A DNA stretch of 64,000 nt. It comes from Paecilomyces variotii. Taxonomy: Eukaryota. Below are positions 1 through 55,643 of this stretch, one piece after another. Each line of letters starts with the position of its first letter. The stretch's first letter is position 1. The stretch lies in NCBI GenBank assembly GCA_004022145.1, contig RCNU01000001.1. One strand, given 5' to 3'. The notes below the pieces were generated by a model. The model was not told where the DNA came from, made no database searches, and saw only the letters and a list, made by a program, of their open reading frames with translations. Position numbers and translations under genes: made by a program.

Positions 1-69
1 CGGACAGGTAACGAGCCAGCGCATTCTGCTGGCCCACGGATCCTACGACTGCTTCCTCCAGTGTCCGCA

Positions 70-573
70 TCATAGCATGTGTCTCTCTGTCTGTGCCATC
101 TTCGCGATAGCCTCTGGGCTGATTTCTGGCTCGGGTTTGGGCGCTGAATCCAGGTTGGCGTGATAGTAGGGGCTTTTATCGAACTCGGTATCCATCATTC
201 TGGGGGTCCGGGCTGGATCCCGGCCTGTTGATGCGGTTGGGAGTGGCACTGTTATCTGAGGAGGTCTCCATCCTTGCGACGAAACTGGGACCATGCGGAC
301 TGTCGGCTGCTTTTTGTCGCCGGGGCGTGCTGGGGGGTCATAATCATCATCGATCTCAATATCATAATTACGGGCCTTAACATCCTCCAGGGCATCCAGT
401 TGCTTCCTTCGTCTCGAAAGAACGACGAGCACGACAAGGGCGGTTACGACGACACTGCAACAAGAGATCAGCAGCAGCTCTTATCGCACGGTTTAGACAA
501 TATAAAGACGATCGGGGCGTATGCAGTAAGGATATACTTACAATCCCAAGATAGCCGTCGGTACGGCGTTCAT
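70..573 (-). CDS. Small single-pass membrane protein (~138 aa), hypothetical; exons 573-542 and 454-70
   Basis: ATG at 573; intron 541-455 (GTAAGT...GCTGAT...TTGCAG) joins in frame to ORF 70-432, giving MNAVPTAILGFVVVTALVVLVVLSRRRK: a hydrophobic helix followed by a basic stop-transfer cluster. Confidence 0.6.
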
Positions 574-2193
574 CAAAAGCTTACTGACCGGCTTCTCGCA
601 CTCAGGACTGTCACTGCCAGCAGAACAATCTCGTCGCAAAAGTATAGAACGAACGTCAAGGCCCATTGTGAATACTTGGGTCATAGAGCACGAAGAAGCA
701 AGTGAATAAAGAAGCAATTGGATATGGGCTCGTATCGCTGGTTATAATTGTAATATCACGCGTGTCTCGTCCCTTTTCAGGAAGTCTCAGCTTTCAGACG
801 CTGAGATGAATGCATCCGCGCTCGAGCATCACCAGGAAAAAAAGGAGGGACTGTGAGCGCGTTAAGCAAGGGTCCTGAATTGGACCCGATAACGTTGGAC
901 TCGCGATTAAGTTACTGCATCCAGAGGCGTTATTAACGAGGGAAATAGGACAAGCACGACAGGAGAGACAGGCGAACAGGCAAGTCGCATGAAGAGAGGG
1001 AAAGGGAAACAAAGGAACAAGGCACTGGCCCCGTTATTATTATTCCTATCGTCCTTGTTACTATCATCCCGCGACACGGTCCTATCTCCTAGCGGAGCTA
1101 CTGGTCGAGCCCCTGAAAGATGGAGAGTGGTTGTAACTGTGGCTTGGCCAATCTGAGACACCAGTCCTGAGAAATGACAACTCCTTCAGCGAGTTAGTTA
1201 GGCTCCTAGCGGGGATTGCGGGCTCATCATCAACAGCCCTGCGCTTTGGCGGAATCTCCAGCCACCGGTGGTATTTCTGCAAGATTGTTGTTGCGAACAA
1301 CAGGACGCCATAGGCCATGCAGAGACTCTTGCGGACGTTGTTGACACGGGCGGGATGATCCGTTCAAGATTCCACGCCAGTGTTCCAGCCTCTTCTTCAA
1401 GGGCAAAAACACAAAGAATGCAACAGCATAACAAATGCCATCGCTACAGCTAACTAACTAGTTAGCTATTATCCACTTCCCCCACACTCGGGAATTGCTT
1501 AACTGCTCCATCAGGGAAACTAAGTCGAGCAGGCGATCAACTAGGAATCTGCTTCTTACAGTACGCGCTCTTCTGATCTCTCTGCAGTACTGCAATCCGG
1601 GCTTCAACGGTAAAGATTGCCTTCTGGTTGATTGATCTTACGCCTTTTCTGTTTTGCTTCCATTCCTGCTCTCCAGGTGCTATTTATTTATTGCATTAGG
1701 TGTTCTTCGGGGACAACTAACTCACCAAAGTCTGTTGTTTTGCCGCACATACTTAACTAGTGAGCGAGTCTAGATGCGATCTAACTCACGATAAGGAATT
1801 TACGACGGGTCCTTGACTGAGACTGTATATAAACACAGACTTTCTTAGACATTTCCATCGCTCCAACAAACCGCTTTTGTCGTCGAGAAGTCTTTAATAA
1901 AGTTCAATATAGCAGCATTCTTTTTGTTCCATTTCTATTCGCTTCTAATAAGTACCCGCTGGTTTCTCTTCAGCATCAACGGAGAATTCTCGCTGTCAGC
2001 AAGATCTAGACTTCAAAACAATGTAATAGTCTTATCTCCCGAAGACGCACTTATCTTCCTGAATATAGAACGCCATTTCGTACAGCCGACTCGTACTACT
2101 ATTATTATGTCTCCGATTGGTTTTCCCCCTGTTAGCTCTGTAGCTAACGTAGCCTTCGTGAAATTACGAATACCCTGTCCACCTACGACAACA

Positions 2194-2486
2194 GCCCGAG
2201 TGGTCTAGTGGCATGATTCTTGCTTGTATGTCTAAGTTCCCAGAAGATATAACCCCTAATAATCAGGAATAAACAACTAATCTCTACCTTCACTAGTGGG
2301 ATACTGCATAACACTTAAGTTCTTGAAGAACTGATAACTAATAATGCACTTAAAAAGCATACTAATAGGGCGGGGGCTATACTAATACACCTAACACCCT
2401 TAACACCACGATCGCTTGAAGATCTTAAGATGACTTAACAGACACCTAACTGCAAGAGGTCCCGCGTTCGAATCGCGGCTCGGGCC
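2194..2486 (+). tRNA. tRNA-Pro(TGG) gene interrupted by two inferred introns (2226-2296 spliceosomal-type; 2301-2450 at canonical 37/38); exons 2194-2225, 2297-2300, 2451-2486
   Basis: Acceptor stem GCCCGAG/CTCGGGC plus discriminator C; A box TGGTCTAGTGG; anticodon stem CTTGC/GCAAG; T arm CCGCG-TTCGAAT-CGCGG; T8 run at 2499-2506. The body resembles eukaryotic tRNA-Pro and the joined exons total 72 nt. The tRNA body is seen directly; the splicing model is inference. Confidence 0.8.
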
Positions 2487-2498
2487 ATTGTCTCTTCC

Positions 2499-2506
2499 TT
2501 TTTTTT
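2499..2506 (+). terminator. RNA polymerase III terminator (T8) of the tRNA-Pro gene
   Basis: First long T run, 12 nt after the discriminator base. Confidence 0.7.
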
Positions 2507-3080
2507 CTTTCGTGGACTTGCTCTTTCCATTGGATTCTTGTTCTTTTGGATTAGTATACGGAGTATATATCATTTGTAAGATCCTAGTGTTACTCTACCG
2601 ACGAGCCAGTCACTGATGAATCTACGTCAAGGAATGGAGTGCCAGTGCTAGAGATCGCCCTCTGGTGCGATCGAATAGGATTGCATACTGTAAGGATCAT
2701 CGCTTTGGTTCGCAGGCAGATGCTGTGCGATTTCGAACATTAGGAGTCTCAGTAGAAGAGAACTAAATTGTTATTTATTGATGATGCATTGGTTCGGTTT
2801 CAAGGACTGCGTCTATACATTCCAACGTGTGGTATCCGTAATGTGCTCGTTTCCTCCGATGGTATTGAGAACAGACAGAAAGACCAAAAAAGCAAGTTGA
2901 ATTGATGAATGAAAAGAGAATCCGACTCTCTCAGCAAAGCTGATGCAAAGAAGACGAAGCGAGAAGATAATATCGCGAGAAGGTCGAAGGTCCCAGCAAA
3001 CCAGTGCTAGAACTCAGCGCCAAATAGAAGGAATTAAACACATCCGATTAAATGTACAGTTCAAAGGGTCAGTCGCAGGA

Positions 3081-4337
3081 CTAGCCTGATATTAGAACCC
3101 AGAGGAGAAAGAAAATCTACAGAAGAGGAGTCAGTGCAAGTTCTTCTGCTGCCATAACCGGAGATGTCCACTTACCATTAGTACTCCGAACATCTTGGCA
3201 ATAAGCCATCTGTTGCCCTGCACTCGGGACCAATACTTTATCAATTCACGTTGCGCACCCTGGACGTTATCGACAATGTCCTCCGTATTGGCATCAATCC
3301 GCTGGATCATCTCCGACTGTTCGCTAACCATGGTGGCTAGCTGCCCGAAGATTCCGCCAAGCTCATTAATCGTACGTTCAATAGCCTCAATGGCTTCCCC
3401 TCGAGCTTGGATATACGACGTGTTGGGCTGAGCCTCTTCCATCATGAGAAGCTGCTGATCTGACTGTGCACCTGGCCGCGAGAAAGGCGAAGATGTCGCC
3501 GGCTCTAAAGTCAGGAGATCGTTGGCACCTCCTTGGTACCCTGGCTGAGGCGTCCTACTTCTTCCGGGGGCGGTATACAACGGGGAATCTGAGCGCTGAG
3601 TGTCCAAGGCGGTCTGTGACTTCGACGACACGGACGAGACGAAATTCTCTGTGCGTGACCGGGATGCCTGGATGTTCTTTGTTCGCACTTCCAGCACCTC
3701 CTTAAAATTGGCTCCAACGTCTGCTAGCTTTCCCTGCAGCATAACCACGACCTGTGCCAGGTTAGCTGCAAATACAGACCAGCTGCTGTCCCGATCCACA
3801 TACATTGTCATTGTGCTCGCCTTCCTGATCCGCCTTATTGCGGGTCGATTTCGGGTGATGCGCCAGCGTCAGCGCCTGGAGGCCTGCGATTTGCGAGTTG
3901 AGAGAAGCCAGATCCTGTTTGATCACGTAGGTCAACTCCGAGATCTCCACGGGTCTGTCATCGAAGAGAGTCTTTCGCTTGGCCACTATGAAACCGTTAG
4001 CTGCCGCGTAAAATGATTGCACAGGTGTCATGGACAACACTCTGTTGGCATGAGCGTTCAATATCTGCGGATGCTACTTACACTCTGCCAATCTTTGCAG
4101 TTTAGCTGTGGTACCGGTAATGCCTCGTCCGATCTCCGCGGCCTTCCTCGCGAATTCAGATCGAGCTCTCCTGCTAGCTTGAGCGCCATCGGGACTTCCA
4201 TTCGCCTGCATGCGCTGGGAGTCCGACAGCAATGCCTGACGCTGTGCGCCGACCTTGGAGGAGGCCTGGCGTTTCTGAACCTGCCCCAGGATGGACCTGA
4301 ACTCATTGGTCCGGTCTTGTATCGACGGGCCGGCCAT
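3081..4337 (-). CDS. SED5: cis-Golgi t-SNARE syntaxin Sed5; exons 4337-4082, 3985-3804, 3751-3176, 3116-3081
   Basis: N-terminal QDRTNEF Sly1-binding peptide, KRKTLFDDRPVEISELTYVIKQDL, SNARE motif IERTINELGGIFGQLATMVSEQSEMIQRID, C-terminal TM; three GT-AG introns. Confidence 0.95.
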
Positions 4338-5294
4338 GATGGAATTAAAAATATTATGGAGAGTAGACGTAAATCTGGCGTAGAAACGAGTGGATGGAAT
4401 AGATCGTGCGACTGAAGGGCTAGCTGTGTAATCGATAAGGAGTCCGGCGAGACAGAGCGACTCTCCCTACAACACTGATGGCGTCAAAAGCGGACAAGAT
4501 ATGTTACCTGTCCATGCGAGGCGATAGATCCGGAGACTGGTCAATTCTGAAAGTCCCAGGACTTGACGAGCTGTGAGTTGGACCGGACAGAATTGCAATA
4601 CTCAGTCAAGACGCCTTCCAGTTGTCCTGGACAATCTGGCCGCGTTCGTTGCAATCCAAGAAGGGAATAGCGTTGATATACCCCACGTGACAACTGGCAC
4701 CGCCACGATTACTACGCCGCATCAGCCACCGCCTGCCATTCAGGTCGCGACATCGTTGTATCTTTCTCTCCTCCATATTTACTGTCTACGTCTCTATCGA
4801 TATTTCGCCTCATTCTTATCGAAACGAGGCCGTTGTGATACTCTCTTTGCACTCTTTTTGCGCTTCGTCAGGGGTCATACCCTCGGTCGAATGTGGCGTA
4901 GCGCTCACTCGTCGTCAGCCTCGTTCAGCCGCGCTCTCCCACCTTGCGACGCCGTTGACAGCTAATAATTACCCAATACTCCGTACACGCTCTCTCTTCG
5001 CTTACTTCCCCTCAATCTGTCTTTCTTTGTCTATTGTTTTCTTATAATACAACAAATATAGCCCTGCGATCGCTGGTGTATGGGATTGGAGAGCTATTGC
5101 GGTATTGCGACAGTGCTATCCTGATTCTATGGTTCCAAAGCCTCAATACACAGCCGGCTCGAGGCTCGAAAGACAACATTTGCCAGTCTGTATCGGTCAC
5201 GACTCCTGGCTTTCATATGTGCCATAGCCTAATTGTGTACGATACATGTGCATGCTGTCTGCCACATTAGTGTAGATCGCTCTATGCTTCCGTG

Positions 5295-8188: not shown

Positions 8189-11083
8189 GGTTCTCAGTCT
8201 TCGTCGTCGTTTACTCATCGCAGAAGTCTACAGCTTCCACATATGACATTTGCACCTGCTAGTGACTCGGCTGCCTCCCATGATCGCTCCTCGCAGCGCG
8301 ATTCAGTAGCACAGGGCACTATTCCGCGTCTTCCTTCATTTAGATTCCAGGAGAACCAATTCTCCCTCGTTGCTGAGGACGTTGTGAACAGAGGCTCGCC
8401 CTCTGAGATACGCCGGGGTCCAGATAGAAGCATGAGATCTCTGTCACTCGACGCTACGGGCAGCCTATGGGGCAGGCAACCTCGTCCAACAGATTCTGCG
8501 GCCAGCAGAAGGTCGGTCGACAACTTAGTCAGTACTAGGGAGAACCGCATGGATGCCAATGGAGGAAGCCACATCACAACTCCGGGTCTCCAGCAGTATG
8601 AAAGCGATACCGAAGAATCACGGCCTGAATATGTTACTTTCTCTGGTGAAGATGAATCCCCCATAGCTCTTTGGACTGCTGCGCTGGAAAATCTGCACGA
8701 ATCTGGCTCTATTTTACCGCCAGAGTCTCAGCTAGATGATAGCTCAGAGAATGGGCTTGGGCCAACGGACTCTCAAGCCCTTTCTCCTTATTCTTCGCCG
8801 GCCGGTGATAACTTTAATGTAGATCCTGACGTTAGGCTGCCAGACGGAGAAAATGAGAATCCAGCATCCGTGGGAGACGCTGGCAATGCTGATGATTCGT
8901 CTCAGGAGAACTTCGAAGGGGATATCGGCGACTCAGCTGAGAAAGACGAGGCCACGCCTCCTGAATACTCTTCCAGAGTGGAAGCGGCAGATCGCGACGT
9001 ACCCAATGAGCCCCCTCCTGCTTTCCCTGGGACTGGTTCTGGTACTGATTATCCTCCGGAGAAGCAAGGATTCAACGGGTGTGCTGGTCCATATTCTCAT
9101 ACTGATACATCAGAAGAAACCCCTCGTCCAAGACCTATCTATCGTATGGTTACAGAACACGAGTGGGGCTCAGTGGCAGGCCGCGAAGACATTCTTCGTT
9201 TCCGATCTCATGCTCGGTCGGCAGATGATTTGCTTCAGCATATCGCTCTCAACCAGCCTCATTCTCAGAGGCCATCTATCGTCTCTCCAGATACCGCCGG
9301 CGACTTGCCGAATTACCAACAGCAACAGCAACACTACCCGCCGCGTGCCCGGGAGGCTTATAGATCTCGCTCTCTCGACTTCAATTCTCTGCTGGCAACT
9401 GATCGACTATTCACTGCGTCTTCTGTGAATACCGGTTCTCCTCGATTCGCGCCCAGATATGAGCCCGCTCTGAACCAGAACGACATGCCCGAGATGCAGC
9501 CAGAGATTCCATCTGCGAACCACCGCTCGAGCCCTGTTAGTAGCGGAGTAGGACGCCTACCGGAACAGCGACGACAGTCGGGTGACATAAATCTACATGC
9601 TCCCCCTACTAGACACAGCTTTCTTAGCTCTACTAGAAACAGCATATTCAGCGCACTCAGCAAGCAGGATTCCGAAAGCCTAAGAAGCCGAAACAGTATT
9701 TCAGGAAATGCAGCTATGTCCCGTGCGGATCTATCAGGGCAGCAAACTCCTGTCAGCTTTGGACCAGAACCAAAAGCCGACAAGGGTCAATCAACCAAGG
9801 CTAAGATAAAGAAACTTGCCAAACTTCATCGGTTGTCCTTGCCGGTAACGGATACGAAACCCCCAGAAGGAGCTAAGAAAGGAACTCTTGCTAGGATCAG
9901 TGTAAGTACATTGGCCAGACTGCAATGCAAAATGCTCGTTTAATTGATACATGTATTCCAGGGCTTTTTTGGTCGTTCATCCTCCCCGGCTCAGCAAGAT
10001 GTGGACGAGCGCAAGAGAAATGGACGTCGAAAATCGCGTGAACTGTTAAACACTAGAAATCCAACTACTCTGCATCCACCTGAACAAGGCTCCCCACTAT
10101 GCAATGCATATCATATCTCAAACGGTTCACGGCAATCCATGGGCCAACCCACTATAACTAGTGGTCAGGAGCCCGCAGGATTCCTAGGGGGTCACCGACT
10201 GGCAAAGCAACGTACTTCAGAGCATAATATACTCGCAGGACAATATTATGCTCAGAATAAACCTCATACGCCTTCCCAATCTCCACATCTCTACCACCCT
10301 CGACCTCAACACCAACAGTTCGCTTCAACAAGCTCAACAAATATCTCTGCACAATCTCCGCCCCTTCGGAATACGTTTTCGCCTTCGTATCAAATGAGAG
10401 ATGCTACGGGAGAAGAGCGTGCTTGGTCTTATACTGACGAGTTACGCATACGTTCGAGGAGTCCAATATCCTATTCACCACAACCTGACACCAGTACGAT
10501 ACCGTCTATTGACTACTCTGATCCTGCGGTTAATTTGGGCATTTTCCAGTCCGTGCCCAACACTGAACGTGTTGGCGATCAAGAAACACCTTGGAATATC
10601 ACACTTCCTGGCGAAACGCAAGACAATGACAGCTCTGGTCACACTGCGCATCATAATCAGACCAGACTCCAGCGCTCCGCCGGACTGAATCCTCCCTATT
10701 CTACCGAATCAATAACATCTCGCCCTGACCAGTCCCGCCAGGGACCAGTCCAACAACATTACCATCTGACACCGATGAAACCATCGCCAACAGTTAACAA
10801 AACTAGTGCTGCAACCGCACACGACAACGAAACCGAATCCCGCAGGTTCAGCTTCGAACCAGAATCAGACGTTGCCAGACCATCAAGGGAAAACGTCAAC
10901 GCCGTCGTACCTTTCTCTACCCATCCCCACCGTGACGAGAGTGCCGTCATCAACAGGACGACAGAGCCAGTTGAGCTCCCTCTTCGCCAAGATGACTCCA
11001 GCGAAGAAATCGTCATGTCCAGTACTGCTTATCCAGGACAGGAATGGCAGCCTGCTGGATATGGCCGTTGGGAGCATCATTAA
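8189..11083 (+). CDS. Low-complexity hypothetical protein (exons 8189 or 8243 to 9901, and 9962-11083); either a separate gene or the 3' part of the upstream gene
   Basis: ORFs 8243-9943 and 9944-11083 are joined in phase 0 by intron 9902-9961 (GTAAGT...TTCCAG); the protein ends MSSTAYPGQEWQPAGYGRWEHH. The frame is open back to an acceptor at 8188. Confidence 0.7.
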
Positions 11084-11477
11084 TCCTACCTAGTGATTTT
11101 TTTAGTAGCTGACCAAAAAAAAAAATTGTGATGTGTGAGATGTGTGATGTGAGATGTGTTTAATGATAAGCCATGTGGCCCAAGAATCTGACGTTTATTG
11201 TCTTTACGCGCGCATACATTATACCCCCCCATCTCATTTGATTCTAAGATAATAATGATAATTTTTTTTATTTGGTTTTGGGTTGGCACTAGCTGTGAAT
11301 ATTGCATGCTTAATTGATTCTGCTTTTGATATATAATGAAAGTAATATAATTGAGAAGGGAGACTACTCTACCCAACTTTAGATCTTTCTATCTGTCTCT
11401 ATTATACAAAACCTCCACGACGTGTCTAGATCTCTATATATAGTTTCTTTCATCACTTAAATTTGCAGTGAGATATA

Positions 11478-13512
11478 TCACCCTTCGAATATGTTCTGCT
11501 GCAACTCCACCCCCATCTCCTTCGCCATTACCTGCATATGGGCTTCAATATCGTCTTCCATACCACCTCCCCCGCGGAAGAACTGCCTGATCTTGGTGAA
11601 ATAGAAGAAGACGTCTGTTGTGAACAGGACCATCTTGAAGACAATATGTCGGCCGAAATTGGCGATTTTCTCATTCAACGGCAAGTCTGGAGACTCGACG
11701 AGTGCACGGGATGCCCATGTTCCAGTAATTTTGATGCGGTTGACAGGCGAGCCTAGGAACTGGTTGTTGGCTTGTACGATGCGGAGATTACGGCCGACGA
11801 AGAGGAGTTCCTGTGGCCATTTCCGCTCGTCACCGATGATCTCGCGGATTCCCTTGCGGGCTGCTTGTTGGATTTCATACAAGCGTTGAGCCTTTTCGCT
11901 CTTGCTGAGACCCTCGAGACTCTTCGTTGTTGATAGGTCTCCGCCGCGGTAGGGCTTCATCAAAGTTGCGGAAGCGAAGATATCGGGATTGTTCACACCC
12001 CAGCTGCGAGTGATCTCACCAAGAGCTTTGTTGTCGAAAGTCAAGAGAGCCTTCCAGAAGCGAGCATATTGGTGTCTGAGTGTGGGGTCCATGTGGATAT
12101 AGAGTCCGTGATCGATGAGCACTAATTCTGCCTTGCCTGAAGGCTGGCGTCGGACGAAGATGTTGCCAGGATGAGGGTCGCAATGGACCCAACCCCAAAG
12201 GAATATCTGCGCGGAAAAGAGATCGACCATAGTTTGCATCACATCTTTCACAGATAGGCCCAGTCCGCCACGCTCCTTCCAGCCTTTCCAATGATTGCGC
12301 TCCGGTTTGATCATATCAAAGCCTGTTCTCCTGGCGATGGACTGGAGGGCGGGTTGGCGGCCTGGAGGATCCAGTGGCGTTCCATGACTGCCAGGACTGC
12401 CTTGTCTCCAGGATCCTTGCCATGGCTTCGTGATGGACTCTTTGTCCCACAACCGCACGCCTTCGATCCATTCCGTTGTCATGACGCGTTTAGAGCTCAG
12501 CTCTCGGTAAACCCGGGGGATGTATACCCTGTCCCGTAGACGTGATTCCCCAGCCACAAGCTCTGCCATCCTTTCTGAGTTATCCGCTTCATTCACGAAA
12601 TCTGTCTCGAGGAGCAACCGTTCACTGACGAAGGGAACTAGGTTATAGAATGGGAGATCGAACCACTTGCTGTAGATCCACGCGACCACCCTGTATAGTT
12701 GTTAGCGCTGTGATAAAACATGGAAATGGCATGCAATGGTCATACTTGAAAGCCCAAAGATCCCACTTGACTTGCTGCGCGATCTCTCGCTTCTGGATTT
12801 TAATCGCAACCTCCCGGCCATCTTCCAGTCTCGCCCAGTGTACCTGAGCCACGCTGGCACTCGCTCTAGCTTTCCGCTCCATGACGCCTTTCTTCGGGTC
12901 GCCACTGAATGAAACGCCAAATACTTCCTCGACTGGTTTCCCGAAGTCTTCCCTGATCACCTTTTCGACGTCCTTCCACTCATCCTGCGGTGCATCGTCG
13001 AACATGCGCGAAAACATCTTCTGGAATTCCGGCGGCAGAATAGCCGACTGCAGCGCGACTGCCTGTCCCATCTTCAAGTATAGCCCACCATTGTGACGCA
13101 GGAGACTTGATAGACGTTCCGCATTGCGCGCATGTACAGCCGTTATGTTTTCGGCGAATGGCGGGTTCGGGCGGAAATTGATCTTGTAATCCAAAGCGAC
13201 CACCAGACCCAGGCCAAAGGTGCGTGAGGTTCGAAGCAGGGACGACGAATAGAACTGTCTATCGACGCCGTAGATTATGCCCGCAGTCACAGTGAAGTAG
13301 AATAACCGTCGTAGCCATTTTCGTGTGCGATCGTATGTCTTTGCGGGGGTCGCTTTGCCCAAGGAGCTCGGAGCAGGAGGCGCAAAGGGCTGGAATTCAT
13401 TGGGATGGATGTATCTGCGTGTCGGAAATCGCAATGTCTGTATTTTATTTGCGCATGGTCGAGCATGCGACCATCGCAGACAGCTGGAGCGCATTGGCCT
13501 CGCAGCAGCCAT
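11478..13512 (-). CDS. Mitochondrial ABC1/UbiB (ADCK1/Mcp2-like) atypical protein kinase; exons 13512-12746 and 12690-11478
   Basis: NGGLYLKMGQ, ASASVAQVH, VAIKIQ, HCDPHPGN and LIDHGLY motifs; Arg-rich presequence; 55-nt GT-AG intron. Confidence 0.92.
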
Positions 13513-13958
13513 TGTTCTGCGGCGTAGGCTGCTGTCTTAAGCAGAAATAGGACGGGATTAAAAAGCCCATTCAAGAGCCTGGGGAAGAACGAACGTGTCC
13601 AGGATCAAGCCAGTCCATGGCGAACCTGCAGCGTTGGTGAGAGATAAAACGAAGATGGATGAAGTTCATCGTGAGATGTCGGCCTGTCGTCATCTGCCGT
13701 TCTTTCTTTCGGCGCTCGGCTTCCGTTCTCGGAGCAACAACAACAATCCCCGAGATAATATGGATGTGATGTTGATTCATGTTAAGTGTTGGATTCTTCA
13801 GCAGCGAGGATCTTGTGAGGTCTAATTATGTCCATTGATCGTTGATACGCTGAATACATCTATCTATTATTTTGCAGACGGACGCGACCTTAGTTGTCCA
13901 TGTCTTTGGGTATGGAAAGTCTATATAAGTTTTCTCGGAACGGCTCTGGTAGTTTTCT

Positions 13959-14972
13959 TCATTTCAAGGCAGAACCGTGCCGTAGTTCTTTGAGTTGGGC
14001 CTCATATCGTCCTTTGAGAAGTGCATAAAAGGTCTCGAGCCGTGGCATCTTCAGACCGTGTCTCCGTCCCAATCGAACCGCGTTCCCGATAATAGCTTCG
14101 ACTTCAAACATCCTCCCTTGTCTAATGTCCTGAAGCATGCTCATCTCTCGCCCTGTGCCCTCCTTTGCTCTCCTTTTCGCGATGCTAAATTTGCTCTCAG
14201 CGACCTCGACTGTGATCCCTGGGATACCGACCTTATCTGCTAGGGCGATGACTTCCAGCATGACTTCCCAGGCCAACTCCTCTGCAAATTCAGATGAGAG
14301 CAAGAAGTCACCGTCCGAGCACAGCGTCAATGCACAGATTGGGTTCCAGGCGGCGTTCAACAACAATTTAGACCATCTGGCAACTTGGATATCCTCTAGG
14401 ACCTTGGCATTGCCTCCACCTTTGACCATCAAGTCTGCAAAATTGAGAGCGGCTGCTTTGTGGTCTGCAGGAGCATCTGCAGGATACGTGCCGAGCTCAA
14501 GAAGGTTGAGCGTCTCGCGGTACTCAATCGTACCGGGCTCGGTCTGCACAGCAGGAAGGTATATGACTCCACTGAGTATCGGATTTTCCGGAAACGCCTG
14601 AGCCACTTCTTCCTCAATCATAATGCCATTTTGAGCAAGTACAATCGCCGTGCTCTTGTTTCGGATGACTGTCGCGAGCATTTCAGGTAGGGAAGGCTTG
14701 CTGCCCGGAAAGGACTTGGTGCAGACAAGGATAAAATCGAAGATCTCGTCTGCACATTCAGAAAGACTGCGAATAGTTCTGCTGGGACGGTATGTGACAT
14801 TTCCATATCGAACACTCAACAGTTTGAAGCCGTTTTCCTTGACATGGGCATAGTTTGAGCGACAGACGGCTGTGACTTCACATCCTGCTTGCTGCAATTG
14901 ATACAAGTAAACTGCTCCGATACTCCCCGCGCCGATGAGGAGTACTCTTGGCGGAATAGTCTGAGCTGTCAT
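13959..14972 (-). CDS. 2-dehydropantoate 2-reductase (ApbA/PanE family) oxidoreductase
   Basis: GAGSIG Rossmann motif, LVCTK, LAQNG, WSKLLLNAAWNP, SMLQD...EVEAIIG; intronless, 337 aa. Confidence 0.92.
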   Translation of the reverse strand: MTAQTIPPRVLLIGAGSIGAVYLYQLQQAGCEVTAVCRSNYAHVKENGFKLLSVRYGNVTYRPSRTIRSLSECADEIFDFILVCTKSFPGSKPSLPEMLATVIRNKSTAIVLAQNGIMIEEEVAQAFPENPILSGVIYLPAVQTEPGTIEYRETLNLLELGTYPADAPADHKAAALNFADLMVKGGGNAKVLEDIQVARWSKLLLNAAWNPICALTLCSDGDFLLSSEFAEELAWEVMLEVIALADKVGIPGITVEVAESKFSIAKRRAKEGTGREMSMLQDIRQGRMFEVEAIIGNAVRLGRRHGLKMPRLETFYALLKGRYEAQLKELRHGSALK

Positions 14973-15456
14973 GTTTGGAATATAGTTCTGGCGGTCTTTC
15001 GAGTCTGAGGTCTGGCTAAGCGATAAGCTATTCCATCATCTTAAACGTCGCAGCCTGAAGCAGCAATTTGTTATACCCCGGAAGTTGACAGCCCGTAGAC
15101 GGGCAGTAAACCGCGCTGATATGCAAAAGATGAATATTGATATTAGTGGTGTTTGGAAAGCCGAGTTACTTAAGCTCGGGCGAGAATTTGCCCCTCTTCG
15201 AATCTTCTTATCGCCAGGCTGCGGGAGCTGGCATCAAGAAATCACCATCAATGAACCGCTCTCATGACAGGGCACGATTCTTTAGAACTAGCATGGAGGA
15301 AGAGAGCACTGGTGCCGGACTGCTTGAATCCTGTCATAATATGCATATTAGCAGTGCATAGAAGGGCTGCTAGATAATGCTAAGGTTGTATTCTGTACTG
15401 TCTTCAAAGCAGCCGACTACAGCATTTGTTTTTAAGAACTCCAGACCGAGCACATA

Positions 15457-16155
15457 TTAGGTCCTTGCCTGCGGCTTTCTCCTCGTGGACGGTTCAATAA
15501 GAACGTCCTTCCATTGCCCAGCTAGACCACCCGGAGAGTCACCAAGCACTGGGTCCTTGTCTGGCTTCGCAACAGTCCATATAGCTTCAAAGTTTCCAAC
15601 ATCATGATCCCCACCGACAGCGACATCCCAATGACCGCAATTCTTGGGATATGCTCCCATCATAGTGAACCCCGTAAGTTCTATCTTCGACAACGCCTCT
15701 TTCACATCAGACGCTTCGACCCCCCGTCCCTTACCAGGCGTAAGTAAGGCAAACGAAGCAGCCGGGCTGGTATTATGTGTCTTGTGCGCCACGCCAGCTG
15801 GAATTACAAAGGCATCACCGGCCTTTGCATTGATCTCAACTCCACCATCCTCTTTGGCGCCACCCCAAGTGCTTTTATGGAGGTCAGGGTCCGTATCAGC
15901 GACCCCAAACCGAATGGTCGCCGTCCCAGTCAAGACGACCATGCACTCATGGATCCTTGAATGGTAGTGAGATTCTTGTGTTGGACCGTATCTGAATATC
16001 CATTGTGTTTTCCAATCGTTCTCGTGGAATCTCTCGTGTATATTTTCGGGATGGAGTTCAGAGTCGGATAATATTCCTTTATAATGGAGTAAGGGTTGTG
16101 GAGAGTTGGGAATGAGCTTTGTGGGTGGGAGATGGTATTTGTATATTTGCACCAT
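15457..16155 (-). CDS. Cupin-superfamily protein (YjlB-like)
   Basis: IPNS..PLLHY, HYHSRIHE and GDAFVIPAGVAH cupin motifs, MMGAYP, DPVLG. Confidence 0.85.
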   Translation of the reverse strand: MVQIYKYHLPPTKLIPNSPQPLLHYKGILSDSELHPENIHERFHENDWKTQWIFRYGPTQESHYHSRIHECMVVLTGTATIRFGVADTDPDLHKSTWGGAKEDGGVEINAKAGDAFVIPAGVAHKTHNTSPAASFALLTPGKGRGVEASDVKEALSKIELTGFTMMGAYPKNCGHWDVAVGGDHDVGNFEAIWTVAKPDKDPVLGDSPGGLAGQWKDVLIEPSTRRKPQART

Positions 16156-17313
16156 TTTGGCAGCTTGATCTTGTGAACCTGATTCAAAGGATTTATTGAT
16201 ATAGTTAGTTAGGCTTGGTGTTGAACTGATTAAACCATTGACTAATCATTGAGAAAGCATATGAGGAGTCTCTCGCTCCATGGATCGTCAAAAGGTATAC
16301 CGGTTGAATGCATCATGATAGGTCTACATCGGAGCCGACATCCGAGAGGGGTTGATAAGCATATCATTGCAGTCTTGCACGGACTTTTACGATACAGATC
16401 GAACCTATTTAGTTAATTTACGTATCCCGGGTGAAGAGGCGGACCAGAGACAATCTCACCGATGTAAGAATCAATATCGGGTATCAATAACAGGGGATGT
16501 CGATTGGTTCGGCAAACCTCATCAATATGGTATGTATTGCTTTTACGATGAAGTAATATCTCGTCAAGTCGTCTCTCTCTGGGCTACACTATATCTTGGA
16601 AATTTACCAGCGCTTTGAGGGGGGGGGAGGAGGAGGAGTACACCAAGCACTGCCAGATAGGTAATCGCACATCTCAACCGGTCTATAAGATTCCAGACTG
16701 TCGGAATTTTGGACGACGAACCATGATATGGATATTCACCTTGGTACTCGACAAGCCACAACTCAAGTGATTGCTCTGCTAGCGCCCCCGTGTTCAGTTG
16801 ACAGTTAGACATACGCATGGGCGAGGTAAGCGCTATAGACAGCTCAACCGCCTGACAGGCGCACGATTCTGAGTTCTAGACTTCTGACGTAGCTTACTTC
16901 TTCAAAGGAAACTGTAGGATGATAAGACGTTTTGTGTAGTATTATTATTGCAGACCACTGAATTGCAAGGGCAATATGAATCCACATCGTCGCCACTCAG
17001 CTTGACTGAGTTGCCCAGCACATGTCTACTGGATGGAATATGACCATTATTCACCGTCGTAATCATCGCCAAAGTCAGCTGCGCAATATCATTGCTGACA
17101 TAAATCGGGTCCGCTTGTGAAGTTATCCAGGATCGAGATCATCTGTCTCCTGTATGATCGCGCCAAAAATCGAGTTCACGGAACGCACAACCGCATCAGG
17201 AGGGGAGCGTCACTATCCTCCCGTCCGTATCAATCTCAGCTCGGCGCCAAAGGAAGAAGAGTATGTCATTCCATTTGCTTCGTGGGATATACCACAAGAA
17301 GATTTGGTATCAA

Positions 17314-17895
17314 CTACAATTCGTCCTTGGGACACGTTGCCGCATACAGTCGCATATAACCCGGCAAGATAACATGCCACAACTCATCCCTGTCGAAAAA
17401 GAGCAACTCCCTCCGACAGATCTCCGCGTTCGTAATGAAGGGTAAGAGTTTGACCCCTTTCTTGATGGCGACCGTAACGAAACGCGTCTTGAAGCACTTC
17501 CCCCAGTCTTGCAACGCTTCTGGTTCTGCGCAAAAGTGCTTCCCTTGTAGCAGCTGTCGACAGTCCCTCTTCACCATGGTCGCGACGTCGTTGCCCATCT
17601 CAAGGAACCTGTCGCGTACTGTGGACGTCATGCCTGTCTGCACGACGAGAGCCTCGACGGTGGGGAGGAAGACGTTTTCGTAGGTCCATTCATCCCAATC
17701 GGATACGGAGGGCGTACATCCTTTCGAACAGATCTCCTTCTGGTATGCGGAGAATAGCGTGTCTGTGCGGCCGTTGATCGTCGTAAGAAGCCTAATGCAG
17801 TTGGGAGAAATAATATCTAAAAGGGATGCTCCTGCTGGTTGGACTGAGAGAAGCAGAGCAGTGCTACATATCAAAAAGAAAGAGAAGAAGCGCAT
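17314..17895 (-). CDS. Small secreted Cys-containing protein, hypothetical (193 aa)
   Basis: Signal-peptide-like N-terminus (MRFFSFFLICSTALLLSVQPAGA) and about eight Cys in the mature part. Confidence 0.7.
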   Translation of the reverse strand: MRFFSFFLICSTALLLSVQPAGASLLDIISPNCIRLLTTINGRTDTLFSAYQKEICSKGCTPSVSDWDEWTYENVFLPTVEALVVQTGMTSTVRDRFLEMGNDVATMVKRDCRQLLQGKHFCAEPEALQDWGKCFKTRFVTVAIKKGVKLLPFITNAEICRRELLFFDRDELWHVILPGYMRLYAATCPKDEL

Positions 17896-18443
17896 AGCTC
17901 GTCGATCGCGTCAATCAGGGATGCTTGTTGATGTTTCGTCTCGCGAGACGTTGACAGCTTCTGTGACAGCCGCGCCACCCCTGGAAAAATGAGGAGTCAT
18001 TTCTCTCCTCAGGGGCTGTTCGCGTGAAGCGCTTTAAAGACGCACCCTGTTGGCGCCGGGTCCCCTCGATCGACAAGCGCAATTTGTTTATTATGCCGTT
18101 TTATGTGTTCGTGTAGCTTGCTTGCCGGGCGGGGTAATAAAGCCGGGGGCCGAGTCTGGGGTACATCGCGACGACCGCAAACATTTCCTGCGAGATAATT
18201 AACTTGCTCTTCAGACAGCATCCGGTCGAAGACTTGGACTAGTTATTCAATTGATGGATCGTGCCATCTCTTCTGGTGGAGATGGTTGGACTGACCGGAT
18301 GACGTCTGTATGAACATGATGTTCATTAAGAGCCATCATAATAAAATGTCGCAGGCCATTGCTCTCTTACCTACTCATCAAACGTTTTCGGTTTTGCTTC
18401 AAGCTGTGTGAGACAGGAATTCACCTCTTAGCTGTTTGCTAAT

Positions 18444-19546
18444 ATGGGTTCGATCCCCAAAACAGGGACGCGCACCCAACTGGACAAGGAAATCGAGGCT
18501 TTCCTGTCAAAGAACCCCGATCTTCATCTCGGTTCAACAGACTTCACCCACGAGCGTCAACATCACACACGCGTATTTGGCTTCCATGCCCTGCCCGAAG
18601 AGCAGCGCGCCCCGATAGGACACGTTGAGTTCGTCACCCTCCGCGGTCCTTACGGCACGATCCCGGTTCGCGTGTTCTACCCGGAATCTGGGGAGGACAG
18701 AACACGCGCTGACGATGCCGCTGCACTTGTCTATTTCCATGGAGGAGGTTATACTATTGGAACGGTAGACGAATTCGAGAATGGCTGTCGCATTCTGGCC
18801 GAAGAGGCCGGCGTGCAAGTCTACGCGGTCGAATACAGATTGTCTCCTGAATGGAGATACCCAACACAGCTGGATGAATATGACTTCGTGGTTGACTGGT
18901 TGCAAGGTCAGGGCGGAAAAGAAATGGGTGTCAGTCCAGACAGAGTGATGGGCGGCGGTGACAGTGCAGGCGGAAATATGACTGCCAGCTTATGTTTGCG
19001 ACGACTGGATCAAGGCAAAAAGCCTCTTCATGCCCAATTTCTCTTATATCCGGAGACAAGGCTACCATTTGATACGTCGGCTGCAGCAGAGAATACTGGC
19101 GGACCGTATCTAGAATGTAAGTCCCATATACTATCTCTGTCGCACTGTATCGGTACTTTTAGAAGCCGTCCTCCTTCCCGGTACTGGTTGTCAGAGGGGA
19201 ATCTAATAATCACCATGCAGGCAATGGCATTTTCGCTTTTGCAGCTCACTACCTTCCTCGTGGAGGCTCTGTCGCTCCTTCGCACCGCTACATAACGCCC
19301 GGTTCGCAGCCTTCTTCGGCACTGAAGGGACTCCCACCAGCTGCCGTCTTTACCTGTGGCTTTGACTGCCTTCGTGATGTTGGAATTGAATATGCATCGA
19401 CCCTTAAAGATGCGGGTAACCAGATTATCTGGCATCATTTCGATACCCTGTGTCATGGATTCCTGCAAATGGCGCCTTGGAGCAAGCAAGCGCTGGCGGC
19501 AACGAAGCAAGTCGCCTTGGAGATGAAGCGACTGGGGTATTCTTAA
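18444..19546 (+). CDS. Alpha/beta hydrolase, hormone-sensitive-lipase-like esterase; exons 18444-19116 and 19221-19546
   Basis: YFHGGGY oxyanion motif, GDSAGG nucleophile elbow, catalytic D (FDCLRD) and H (CHGF) in exon 2; intron 19117-19220. Confidence 0.93.
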
Positions 19547-20006
19547 TACGGCCTATGAACTCTTCCGCCGTCGAAAAGGATATCGCGTAAATTATCGACG
19601 TGTTTACATATCTTTTCTTTTAAATAGGTCTCTTTTTTCTATGTAGACAGCCGAGCCGTCACGCGGATTTGCGCGGCATGAATGAACAAGCATATGAAGT
19701 TCAAATACTACCCGTGAAATGTAAGGATTACATGTAAAAATGCCCCTGTTGATGTTATCTTTGTGTGCATCTCGACTTCGCGGGGTAATTCGTGCTTCTT
19801 ACGATTAGAAAACTTATCGTATCGGAGCCAATGATGCGCACAGATGGAGATACGTCACGCCCTTCCGGCCAACAACAAAGACCGTTACTTGTTTCCAACA
19901 TTATTCAACAGCGCGCCACAGAGTCATCCAGTCTTTTATAGTTGGACCTGATTACTATATAGAACGATCTCTGTCTGTTTTATTTGTTCTATAATACAGT
20001 GTTCTC

Positions 20007-21262
20007 ATGTCTGGGTCATTGCCTCTGGTTGAGGTCGACTCGCTCGAGGCGGTGGTCATCATCGACAATGAATTGGATCCGATGTCTCCTGTTCCGCCAG
20101 ATACTGTTCAGGTAACGGGTCTAATGCAGCATTTGGCAACAAGGTCTCCTCATAAACTACATGACCGTGGCGATGCGTCAAGGGAGATACGCATGGAAGA
20201 CATTTGTTGCTCGGCACATGGCTTGTCTATCCTAGTGGTAAGTTACGAATTATTTACAGGCGCAGATAGAAAGTACTTAACCCGTACGTCTAGACCGCTA
20301 CAAGGGGGGATGTGAAGCACTCTTTACTTTTCGACTTGGGCCCGGAGGAAGCGGCATTCGAGAGAAATGCAAAGAGATTGCGAGTAGACCTATCATCTGT
20401 CGAGGTGATCCAGTTATCACATTGGCATCGGGATCATTCAGGTCAGTACTTTTGTCTTTATCCAGAGGCCCTGTAATCTCTCAGATATTTCGGGGTCTCA
20501 TAGATCATCCTTCTCCTGACAATATCGTAGGTGGTATGCTTAAAGCCATTCAAATGATCAGAGAAGCCAAGAAAGAGAAAGAGCTTTCTGATACGAGCGT
20601 GGTTGTCGATCTTCATCCATCGCGACCAGACTATCGTGGTATAGGGATCGGCGACAATATCATCTCATTAGAGGCTGATCCCACATTTGAAGAGATCGAA
20701 AAAGCTGGGGCCACTGTTAACAAGCACAGCGAGGCCCATACCGTCCTAGATGACATGTTTTTGATCTCTGGTGAAATACCGCGGGTCACACCGTATGAGC
20801 ATGGCCTGAAGGGAGCAATGCGCTTCGACAAGGAAGATGGAGACTGGTTTTCTGATGAGATGATAGCGGATGAGAGATTCCTGATGTGTAACTTGAAAGG
20901 TATGCACAATCTGATCGTCAATTGTTGTGTACGTGTTAGGTTTTTAAGCTAATCTGCCGGTTTCGCTAGGCAAAGGAATTGTCATGTTCACTGGCTGTAG
21001 CCATGCCGGAGTAGTAAATTCTTCCAAACATGCACTCTCGCTTCTCAATGGCTCTACGCCACTACACGCTGTTGTCGGTGGGTTTCATCTAGCCACGAGC
21101 GAGGAGTCACATATGGAGAGTGCAGTGAATGATCTCAGGAAGCTCGATCCTGCTGTTCTCCTGCCTGGGCACTGCACTGGTTGGAGAGCCAAATTCATCA
21201 TTGAAACGCAGATGCCTGGTAGACTAGTCCCATGTACTGTAGGCATAAAAATCAAATTTTGA
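20007..21262 (+). CDS. Metallo-beta-lactamase-fold hydrolase (DHPS-like MBL family); 4 exons
   Basis: AHGLS, LLFDLG, LSHWHRDHSGG (across an intron), GCSHAG, GGFHL, PGHCTG motifs; introns near 20238-20293, 20442-20530 and 20900-20969. Confidence 0.88.
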
Positions 21263-22606
21263 TTTAATCTTGCGCAATACGAGATAGAGGGTATCCGCAG
21301 AGGTTTCAGATGTCCTCGGGGAGCATTAGCTTCGAAACCATCCCAGCAGTACGGAAAATATCGCACAACAATGCTAGACGGTTCCAGTCAAGAGATTTCG
21401 GAGATATTCGATTGTTTCTCGAGTCTCTTGCTCACGGGCCAATTCACTCTGCCCGTAGTATCCAAATTCTCGATATGGTCGATGTCGATCATTCCTCATG
21501 GCTTGTCATTTTTACCTGGACCATTGGGCCCAGCATGGCTAGATTTTCACGAGATGCTAGGTATATCTGTCTGGCGAACTCTCTCGAAATATTTAGAGAC
21601 TTGACCTCAAGCTAAGAGACACCAAAGAGAGCACGTCAGGTTGCCTAATGCACTCATCATGGGCCTTTGTTTACTTTTGGCCATGTATTGACTACTTTTG
21701 GTCCTTCTGAGATGAAATATCTAATGCGTTATTCATATGCCGGATTTAAAGCCAATGTTAAGACACCTTCGGTCCAACGCTTGCTCGAGGGCTTTGCAAT
21801 GGATCTTTATACCTATTTTTCTTTCTAATTTTTCTCTGTCTTTGAATTTGTAATCTTACTGTTAGAGGTCACTGGGGCCAAAAAATGAGGCTGCGCATCT
21901 TAGCATCTCACTGTGTCCGCCCGATTCGATGATTACTGGCAAAAACCGATTGGCGATCTGTCGCACTTTTTCGTCCGTAACACCGTCCGATTTATCATCA
22001 AGTAGATATGGCTATTTAATTAGAACCATTAAAGTTATTACTAATTCGGCGATTACTTGCCTATCTATTGATCTCCCTTCCAGCTGAGATGAGATACACA
22101 AAGGCATCTCAACAATCGTCCAATCACCTGCCCACATGGCTGCTGACTATCGAGAAACAGACAACCAGATACGTATGGTTCTCTAACAAGGATTCCCCTT
22201 CTTCATCGATATGTGGATCAAAAAGCAAAGTTCTTCATTCTGACTCAGAGCCGATGTCAGCCTTCTACGAGATTCGCTATCGGACGGATCCTTTGGGCAT
22301 TGCTTATATCGGGAAGATTATTTACCATTACCTTTTACTCAGCTAGCTGATGCTGGCTGGAATTAGAAATCATATGGATGACGGTTACTATCGCAGGATG
22401 GTGCGACATGTGTGCCGTGATGGAGAGACGGACGAAAGACCTAGATTTCAAGTTAAATTCCCGGATTCCCAGTGATATTTTCGAGGTTCTGATTTTGTTT
22501 TCTTCCTCATGAAGCTGTTGAGAGCTTTCTATCATTTTTCTCTTGTCTCTCTCTTCTCTTACGTTCTTGACACCTCCGGCGGACATAGTCGTTCATAGTC
22601 GCTAGC

Positions 22607-54258: not shown

Positions 54259-54817
54259 TGGAGGCAGTCTTAGTTTCCCATCTGCTTTGCGGGAATGTTG
54301 TACATGCCGTATGAGGGCGTTTTAGTATTGTGTGAAGTCCCTGTCGCTTCTACTCCCACTTTGTGTTTTACTATTTTACCTATGATACCCATCAATTCAT
54401 GTCTTTAGAACCATCATTTCCAAACATAGCAAAGGCATATAGGATATCCATAGGTTCTATATATACCGTTGAATGGTAATGTAGCTGATGCTGCGGAGCG
54501 GACATCTAGATTAATACACATCCCACACATTTGTTTCCGGAAAGACACCGCATGTGAATACGACGAAAGAAATGATGGTCCATACACTTCGTGGGCTACT
54601 CGAGATCGAGAGACCTTCGCTAGAGTTGCAAAGTTGAAGTAGATATATATGAAGTTGAATCGTCTCACGAATCTATACTGACTCTGGTAGAAATAATATT
54701 CCAGGACAACTTCAAACGAAGAAGATAAAGAACCATCACCCCATTGGAAAAAAAAAAAAAAAAAAAAACAGAGAGAGAGAGAACCATGTCAAGAAGTAAC
54801 AAAAAAGGAAATGCTGA

Positions 54818-54888
54818 TGCATCATCCGTGAATCGAACACGGGCCTCGTCGATGGCAACGACGAATTCTACCACTAGACCAATGATGC
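54818..54888 (-). tRNA. tRNA-Gly(GCC), intronless
   Basis: Minus strand reads GCATCATTGGTCTAGTGGTAGAATTCGTCGTTGCCATCGACGAGGCCCGTGTTCGATTCACGGATGATGCA: full cloverleaf, anticodon GCC, T6 terminator downstream (A run at 54801-54806). Confidence 0.97.
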
Positions 54889-55643
54889 AGGCGGATAAGC
54901 TGAGAAGCGAATGTGATTCGCTGCTTGCTGTGATGGCACTATCCGAATTGTAATTCAAGAACCTCTGGGAAAATATCGACTATTGAATGCAATTTATGAC
55001 ACAGTGTGTTCATTGTTGATTCACGCGCTCTTCATATGGATAATGCGATATGGGAAATCCTTGGAAAACAAGAGTCTGATTTTGCCATTTTCTAGCTAGA
55101 TTGGTTCTTGAATGGTGATGATGCAAAATGAAGCTGAAAGAGTCAGAGAGAATGTCGAAGCAGGGGCGAGTTATAAAAATAATGATGTCTCGCATAGAAC
55201 GAAGCCGACAGAGTGTACGAAGATGGAACCAATCTCAGGTCTGAAGTCCAAGGAAACGACGGAGGAGGATTTGATGTCTTCTCACCGGTGAGATGGAAAC
55301 TAATTAATCAGCCTTGATCCATACAGATAGTATCTCGAAGGAGATGATACAGAGATGGGATATCGTTGAATGGTAGCGTAGAATTCGCCCTTCAGCAATT
55401 TCCAGAGAAAGTGGACGTTATGGACGTTACGGTCACATATCAGAGCCGGAGACTGCTTGTAGAATTGGAGAATATAAAACCGTAGTGCCGCAATGAAAGT
55501 TTGCGACAGACTGATGAATAAAAATATACAACTCGAGATAGCGGAGACCATTTACCCCCAATAATCACGAACACTAGTTAACTCGACTCCAACAACTCCT
55601 TCACCAATCCATGAAACGTGAGAACACTCAATCAAGTGTCCTC

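Follow-up and report, generated by a model that had tools for sequence, protein, structure and literature searches.

According to the accessible parts of two reviews, spliceosomal introns and transfer RNA (tRNA) introns are unrelated classes that reside in different kinds of RNA (PMC12530127; PMC10275265). The U6 small nuclear RNA gene of Schizosaccharomyces pombe contains a messenger RNA (mRNA)-type intron that the spliceosome takes out, as stated in the available part of the source (Tani and Ohshima 1989, cited in PMC5855946). The subject of this report is a tRNA-Pro(UGG) gene located at positions 2194-2486 (+) of a stretch of 64,000 nucleotides (nt) from Paecilomyces variotii (GenBank assembly GCA_004022145.1, contig RCNU01000001.1), hereafter called the window. 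In this gene, a spliceosomal-type intron and a tRNA intron are found within four bases of one another in a single tRNA. Like the U6 gene of S. pombe, it combines a short GT..AG intron with a small structured non-coding RNA. Unlike U6, the host is a tRNA, and a second intron of the other kind lies 3-4 nt away, which would bring two machineries to act on one 72-nt RNA. RNA polymerase III (Pol III) transcribes the S. pombe U6 gene; for the window gene, we infer Pol III transcription of the spliced substrate. The introns of U6 genes are also said to contain a match to the B box, judging by the title of a 1990 report by Frendewey et al. The ribosomal RNA (rRNA) genes of ascomycetes contain spliceosomal introns and are comparable in that mRNA-type introns occupy a gene outside the domain of RNA polymerase II (Pol II); they differ from the present case by the polymerase, by the host RNA and by the second splicing system proposed here.

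Yeast tRNA-Pro(UGG) genes carry canonical tRNA introns. The second intron of the window gene resembles such introns by its 37/38 position, by the pairing between anticodon and intron and by its unpaired cut sites. Unlike them, it is long (150 nt) and acquires the canonical geometry only after the first intron has left the anticodon loop. The accessible part of PMC3978253 describes, for archaea and for Cyanidioschyzon merolae, permuted tRNA genes and tRNA genes disrupted by several or by ectopic introns of the bulge-helix-bulge kind. There too, a gene can possess more than one intron, introns occur outside position 37/38 and the genes are invisible to standard finders; however, all of these introns are cut by the endonuclease at a bulge-helix-bulge, whereas the first intron of the window gene has GT..AG ends and no such motif. 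Finally, tRNA intronic circular RNAs constitute a known class (PMC4536317; PMC6614914). As far as the accessible text of these sources goes, fungal genomes lack RtcB and their tRNA introns are normally linear (PMC6614914), and the tRNA-Trp intron of Saccharomyces cerevisiae, which is partly circular in a Trl1-dependent manner, is the sole yeast case reported so far (bioRxiv 10.1101/2025.11.19.689297). Like the members of this class, the second intron of the window gene is excised, joined head to tail and accumulates; unlike most fungal tRNA introns, described as linear, it is found head-to-tail joined at contig depths in the thousands. No description of a spliceosomal intron in a tRNA gene was found in the literature searched, with most subscription journals outside the reach of the search. 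This agrees with the preliminary description of this DNA, which was made from the sequence alone and knew of no case inside a tRNA anticodon loop. Both types of intron are familiar, which cannot be said of their combination in a tRNA with an anticodon micro-exon of 3-4 nt.

Structure of the tRNA-Pro(UGG) gene

The preliminary description had divided the gene into three exons and two inserts. On reading the sequence, every predicted element was confirmed at its coordinate, namely the exons, the GTATGT, ACTAAT and TAG signals, the TGGG micro-exon and the 150-nt remainder. From 5' to 3', exon 1, intron 1, the micro-exon, intron 2 and exon 3 measure 32/71/4/150/36 nt. Intron 1 displays the signals of a U2-type intron (a 5' GT hexamer, a branch motif near the 3' end and a YAG), for which the consensus forms of the splice sites and the branch consensus RCTRAY are known. 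A cloverleaf with a 7-nt anticodon loop, the anticodon UGG and a purine at position 37 is obtained only after the scripted removal of both inserts. ARAGORN then reports a clean 72-nt tRNA-Pro(tgg), the standard length that had been announced for the joining of 32+4+36 nt. When intron 1 alone is removed by script, ARAGORN returns a tRNA-Pro(tgg) and places its intron, of 150 nt, at position 37, i(37,150). The remaining insert is then a textbook 37/38 intron, as had been proposed. The coordinates of all features are collected in Table 1, together with the joints found in the sequencing runs. Four such runs (X4, X15, X16 and X17) were compared with the window, all of them as Logan contigs.

Table 1. 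Features of the tRNA-Pro(UGG) gene, of its surroundings and of two related loci. Positions refer to the window, except for L001 and L002.
Feature	Position	Strand	Description	Basis
Exon 1	2194..2225	+	32 nt, ends CTTGCTT; acceptor 5' strand, D arm, anticodon-stem 5' strand, U32, U33	Sequence reading and ARAGORN on the join
Intron 1	2226..2296	+	71 nt, mRNA-type GT..AG, between U33 and U34	X4 joint
5' splice site GTATGT	2226..2231	+		Sequence reading
Branch-site-like ACTAAT	2276..2281	+	A2280 lies 16 nt upstream of the 3' cut	
3' splice site TAG	2294..2296	+		Sequence reading; X4 joint ends 2296
Micro-exon TGGG	2297..2300	+	Anticodon UGG (34-36) and G37	X4 joint on the left, X17 back-joint on the right
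Intron 2	2301..2450	+	150 nt, canonical 37/38 tRNA intron	X17 back-joints
CTAAY motifs in intron 2	2338, 2362, 2382, 2391, 2446	+	Three are ACTAAT	
Exon 3	2451..2486	+	36 nt; U38, anticodon-stem 3' strand, variable loop, T arm, acceptor 3' strand, discriminator C	Sequence reading and ARAGORN on the join
Run of 8 T	2499..2506	+	Pol III-terminator-like, 13 nt downstream of the gene	
X4 contig without intron 1, with intron 2	1882..2563	+ (inferred from the GT..AG ends)		Record 24
Plausible introns of the neighbouring SNARE gene	4081-3986, 3803-3752, 3175-3117	-		
L001, tRNA-Pro(UGG)	1-199	-	Three inserts; at contig end	
L002, tRNA-Pro(UGG)	28-226	+	Three inserts; at contig end	

The unmodified gene escapes the usual tools. 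ARAGORN with default settings missed it, its sole report in the window being a tRNA-Gly located elsewhere, and Rfam (RF00005) at the gathering score had no match at the tRNA-Pro gene and reported the same single tRNA-Gly. With introns allowed, ARAGORN miscalled the gene as a tRNA-Thr(tgt) with a 223-nt intron. That finders would miss or miscall this gene had been foreseen, but not the form of the error, which was either no gene or Thr(tgt) instead of the predicted Tyr(GTA).

The splice motifs of intron 1 are by themselves weak evidence. A strict GT..branch..YAG pattern has 8 matches on the + strand and 9 on the - strand of the 64 kb, against 10.4 +/- 3.3 for the shuffled + strand, and intron-like motif units are no commoner in the window than in shuffles. 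Such a unit would thus start at any given base with a probability of about 1 to 2 in 10,000. Intron 1 stands above chance because of its position, as it starts directly after U33 and ends directly before UGG and a purine. The joints observed in RNA contigs add to this positional argument against chance.

Evidence for the removal of intron 1

In one contig of X4, position 2225 is joined to position 2297. The 71 nt that are skipped have GT..AG ends, no letters are shared at the joint, and the extent predicted for intron 1 is exactly reproduced. This contig (612 nt, depth 42.1) is composed of the pieces 1882-2225 and 2297-2563 with 0 other letters (side 255, both 0), and it retains 2301-2450. The run is labelled organism A, and its RNA status is a guess of the tool. 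Of the words sampled from 1200-4200, fractions of 1.00, 1.00 and 0.98 are present in three further runs with the label organism A; the 71 nt are therefore part of the organism's DNA. The depths of adjacent X4 contigs are 14.4, 42.1 and 875.5, a 60-fold spread that fits RNA rather than the DNA of a single genome, contig depth being in general a rough and poor measure of abundance. In the related strain of X16 and X17, the substitution T2229C changes GTATGT into GTACGT, and no strain variant was observed at ACTAAT (2276-2281) in the run comparisons.

The secondary structure was considered as well, as the preliminary description had raised the possibility of a removal of intron 1 by the tRNA endonuclease through a bulge-helix-bulge. 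In the minimum-energy fold of 2194-2486, which is a single predicted structure, both junctions of intron 1 lie within helices and no such motif is formed at its ends. Intron 1 itself shows no special structure (z = +0.46). On the basis of this model, the tRNA endonuclease is an unlikely agent for the removal of intron 1.

Excision and accumulation of intron 2

The run X17 consists of metatranscriptome complementary DNA (cDNA) from a food fermentation. Three of its contigs show a head-to-tail joint of intron 2, in which the last bases of the 150 nt lead back to the first: 2447 is connected to 2301 with 3 letters between, 2450 to 2303 with 2 letters between, and 2450 runs into 2301-2318 in the third contig. 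Record 10 of X16 is colinear over 2120-2483, shows no duplication and has in common with the X17 contigs the strain variants at 2229, 2284, 2307, 2335, 2378 and 2380. The back-joint therefore arises at the RNA level and not from a duplication of DNA. Together, the X4 joint and the X17 back-joint fix the micro-exon at 2297-2300 and intron 2 at position 37/38. All four of the predicted boundaries are present in RNA-derived contigs, and the proposal of two splicing systems is supported in this respect.

The summed depth of the X17 contigs amounts to 9,222-21,579 over 2311-2451, and single contigs within 2327-2437 have depths of 4,703-4,872, compared with 80.8 for the contig of the neighbouring gene. 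Intron 2 accumulates as a circle or as tandem copies; the back-joint fits either form, a circle and tandem cDNA copies being indistinguishable in the X17 contigs. In one further X17 contig, the sequence from 2314 onward is attached to the reverse complement of 2430-2447; the inverted repeat 2314-2328 / 2415-2429 may have given rise to it by a snap-back.

In the predicted fold of the precursor devoid of intron 1, the anticodon stem is kept and UGGG (2297-2300) pairs with 2445-2448, and 2301-2303 and 2450-2451 are unpaired, which leaves both cut sites open. As modelled, this geometry corresponds to the usual form of a substrate for the tRNA splicing endonuclease. Intron 2 alone folds with an energy of -23.6 kcal/mol (z -2.45). 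It is also rich in branch-like motifs, as CTAAY occurs five times against 1.44 in dinucleotide shuffles (P = 0.006). A strain variant, T2335C, converts ACTGAT into ACTGAC.

A second lineage with three introns

A metagenome scan was performed with a pattern consisting of the tRNA-Pro D arm followed by TT and GTNNGT, and gave two loci, L001 and L002. In both of them, a first unit of 51 nt (GTAAGT..CTAAC..CAG) separates T34 from G35 in the anticodon loop, a 25-nt canonical intron occupies position 37/38, and a second such unit, again of 51 nt (GTAAGT..ACTAAT..CAG), interrupts the T loop after T54 and before T55. The raw DNA of these loci yields nothing by ARAGORN and nothing by Rfam at E up to 1. 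Once the two GT..AG units of L002 are removed by script, ARAGORN reports a tRNA-Pro(tgg) with a canonical intron of 25 nt. A pattern of tRNA-Pro and GT had 0 matches in prokaryote genome contigs, a result that was expected and is uninformative. The neighbours of L002 include a C1-like peptidase and Thg1, which we take to be a eukaryotic enzyme, and the presence of the latter suggests a eukaryotic source. With these three-intron relatives, the design with two kinds of intron is not a one-off.

The comparison of the two loci is informative. Their exons are identical at 66/66 positions, whereas their introns differ at 21/130 columns (Fisher p = 1.3e-4), with the GT, the branch motifs and the CAG all conserved. 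Between the joined exons of the window gene and those of L002, 14/72 positions differ; 12 of these form 6 compensatory stem pairs and 2 are located in loops. The constancy of the exons and the compensatory pairs are the signature of selection on a working cloverleaf. The T-loop unit of L001 and L002 splits the B box and itself contains GGTTCGA, an intron-borne B-box match that recalls S. pombe U6.

Self-splicing introns of group I or group II were considered as candidates and rejected: Rfam had no match to them in the window at the gathering score or in L001 and L002 at E up to 1, and the units measure 51-71 nt, where a ribozyme intron would reach hundreds of nt.

Origin of the introns

Intron 1 (2233-2281) aligns with intron 2 (2316-2366) above the level of dinucleotide shuffles (P = 0.0035), and the alignment may extend to 2205/2293 (P = 0.0005). 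The ACTAAT at 2276 corresponds in this alignment to that at 2361. On this sequence evidence, a long ancestral intron is likely to have undergone an internal tandem duplication, with a period of about 83-88 nt. Such a duplication explains at least in part the excess of CTAAY in intron 2. No further copies of intron 1 or intron 2 were found within the window. The homology of intron 1 to the introns of L002 is marginal or absent (P = 0.048 and 0.45), and that between the first and third inserts of L002 (P = 0.039) derives mostly from the splice signals. Neither a common descent of these introns nor their sliding between 33/34 and 34/35 is therefore supported.

Transcription of the gene

The A- and B-box regions of the gene are intact by consensus on reading the sequence. 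Runs of T are signals for Pol III termination, and one is located shortly after exon 3 (Table 1); the 225-nt insert is free of any run of at least three T (shuffle P = 0.047). The 5' leader (2187-2193) and the 3' trailer (2486-2492) are complementary to one another (inverted repeat I2, 86% over 14 nt), and their pairing would lengthen the acceptor stem. These features speak for Pol III, as does the intron-borne B-box core of L001 and L002. The X4 contigs leave 2226-2296 uncovered, except for the joined contig, and do not cover 2593-2780. In X17, there is no cover before 2170 or over 2452-2498, and the first piece listed starts at 2188, 6 nt upstream of the gene. Such missing cover would agree with a short leader made by Pol III and with an origin from RNA, with the limits that contigs cannot show the ends of single RNAs and that exon 3 has words in common with paralogs. 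Pfam gave nothing for the 8 open reading frames scanned between 70 and 2208, and the long X4 transcript was assigned to no gene.

Proposed maturation and competing explanations

In the model that we favour, a nuclear tRNA-Pro(UGG) gene with exons of 32, 4 and 36 nt would be matured by two unrelated splicing systems. Pol III would produce the productive precursor, as it does for the intron-bearing U6 gene of S. pombe, and the spliceosome would first remove intron 1, between U33 and U34. With intron 1 gone, the anticodon loop would be normal, and after it would come a canonical intron at 37/38 that the tRNA splicing endonuclease would cut at 2300/2301 and 2450/2451. A ligase would join the tRNA halves into a working tRNA, and the excised 150-nt intron would close into a stable circle. 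An architecture of two introns excised at the RNA level at the predicted bases is highly probable. The agent for intron 1 is in all likelihood the spliceosome, and the production of a working tRNA from the gene is reasonably likely. Towards the model in its entirety, Pol III included, we lean only slightly.

A number of observations weigh against this model. The removal of intron 1 is known from one contig of one run whose RNA label is a guess, and intron 1 is kept in record 3 of X15, record 10 of X16 and record 16 of X17, three runs labelled RNA in which DNA may be present. The fully joined tRNA was found in no contig of the four runs; standard RNA-seq contigs rarely contain mature tRNA. No lariat was seen either, a contig spanning the branch being reported from none of these runs. 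The spliced X4 contig keeps intron 2; it begins 312 nt before the gene and continues past the T run for 57 nt. As it exceeds the gene on both sides, it is not a plain Pol III pre-tRNA and points probably to a longer Pol II transcript. Moreover, a related haplotype in X15 combines T2204G in the D stem with the loss of 2 nt from the T arm at 2466 (2466-2467). The gene could be decaying in the relative concerned; alternatively, the assembly may have passed through a paralog. Loose ends before 2455 in X4, X15 and X16 reveal an intronless tRNA-Pro(UGG) paralog. At least one such paralog exists, with a different anticodon stem and with the T arm and the acceptor 3' strand in common with the window gene. 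The argument of the preliminary description that a single copy would have to be functional is thereby lost, and the window gene is not needed to supply the UGG anticodon.

Several competing explanations were weighed. In one of them, a long + strand Pol II transcript would be the only substrate of the spliceosome; RNase P and RNase Z would release the tRNA before the endonuclease acts, and the Pol III transcripts, retaining intron 1, would be dead ends. The enzymatic part of this route has precedent, since tRNAs embedded in Pol II transcripts can be freed by RNase P and Z. The only molecule lacking intron 1 spans 1882-2563, far past the gene and the T run, and record 16 of X17, at a depth of 249.7, keeps intron 1. 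On the other hand, the A box, the B box and the T8 run are intact, long T runs are avoided in the insert, and a B-box core inside the very intron that splits the B box of L001 and L002 makes sense only for Pol III; in addition, the 682-nt span of the contig may result from the merging of several overlapping molecules. We consider this route unlikely but worth serious attention, and Pol III somewhat more likely than Pol II as the source of the spliced substrate. Another explanation is that the insert killed the gene. The splicing of intron 1 would then be incidental to a non-coding Pol II transcript, the endonuclease would still free the circle and no functional tRNA would be made. The intronless paralog, the X15 haplotype and the lack of a mature form in the run contigs speak for a dead or dying gene. 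It is nevertheless improbable, as two independent cuts leave exactly UGG and G37 in a 7-nt loop with all stems intact, the second lineage shows 66/66 identical exon positions against 21 intron changes, and all 6 of the stem differences between the lineages are compensatory.

Slightly less credible still is the idea that the circular 150-nt RNA would be the main product, for which the tRNA gene would serve as a Pol III and endonuclease scaffold and which may bind branch-point factors. The depth of the X17 contigs relative to the neighbouring gene, the back-joints, the CTAAY excess and the stable fold of intron 2 are in its favour, but the motif excess comes at least partly from the internal duplication, circles pile up simply by resisting exonucleases, and the 37/38 intron of L001 and L002 is only 25 nt long. 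That intron 1 is a non-canonical intron like those of archaea and Cyanidioschyzon, released by the tRNA endonuclease at a bulge-helix-bulge, is very improbable. In favour of this is its position within the anticodon loop, next to a genuine endonuclease site; against it, both junctions are inside helices in the minimum-energy fold, which shows no 4-bp helix flanked by two 3-nt bulges, GTATGT, ACTAAT and TAG are present, and the same set of signals recurs in the four units of L001 and L002, the T-loop position included. There is equally little reason to believe that the X4 joint is a DNA deletion allele or an artefact of assembly or reverse transcription. Its guessed RNA label and its occurrence in one contig only would permit this reading; against it stand the exact GT..AG ends without shared letters, which do not resemble template switching, and the identity of the rest of the contig with the window, and the three other organism A runs hold nearly all of the sampled words.

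The comparison with the second lineage can be extended, more tentatively and with a chance that we place a little below even, to a hidden fungal class of working Pol III tRNA genes dependent on the spliceosome and spliced like S. pombe U6. Its members would have up to three introns of two kinds in one 72-nt tRNA, anticodon micro-exons of 3-4 nt and a B box borne by an intron, would be missed by finders and, in the organism of the window, would yield an abundant circle with branch motifs. If the favoured model is correct, the window gene would give the first tRNA with an anticodon loop put together by the spliceosome, and would be the second natural case, after U6, of spliceosome action on a Pol III transcript. 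It would provide a test bed for the way in which the endonuclease measures where to cut in an interrupted loop, and its abundant circle would be a clear fungal case of tRNA-intron circularisation. Annotation tools would be blind to such genes. With a whole class of this kind, the supply of such a tRNA would be tied to the activity of the spliceosome, and fungal sets of tRNA genes would be under-counted.

Genomic context

The neighbouring gene at 3117-4306 (-) encodes a SNARE domain (Pfam E = 2.7e-09) and contains three intron-like units of 52-96 nt. The term 'SED5-adjacent', applied earlier to the locus, is only a loose fit for a neighbour identified by this domain. Intron 1 had also been likened to the mRNA introns of the window; the three plausible introns of the SNARE gene agree with this likeness, but it finds no support in the overall frequency of motif units, which does not exceed that of shuffles. 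The tRNA-Gly(GCC) called by both ARAGORN and Rfam, at 54816-54889 (-), is an ordinary intronless gene.

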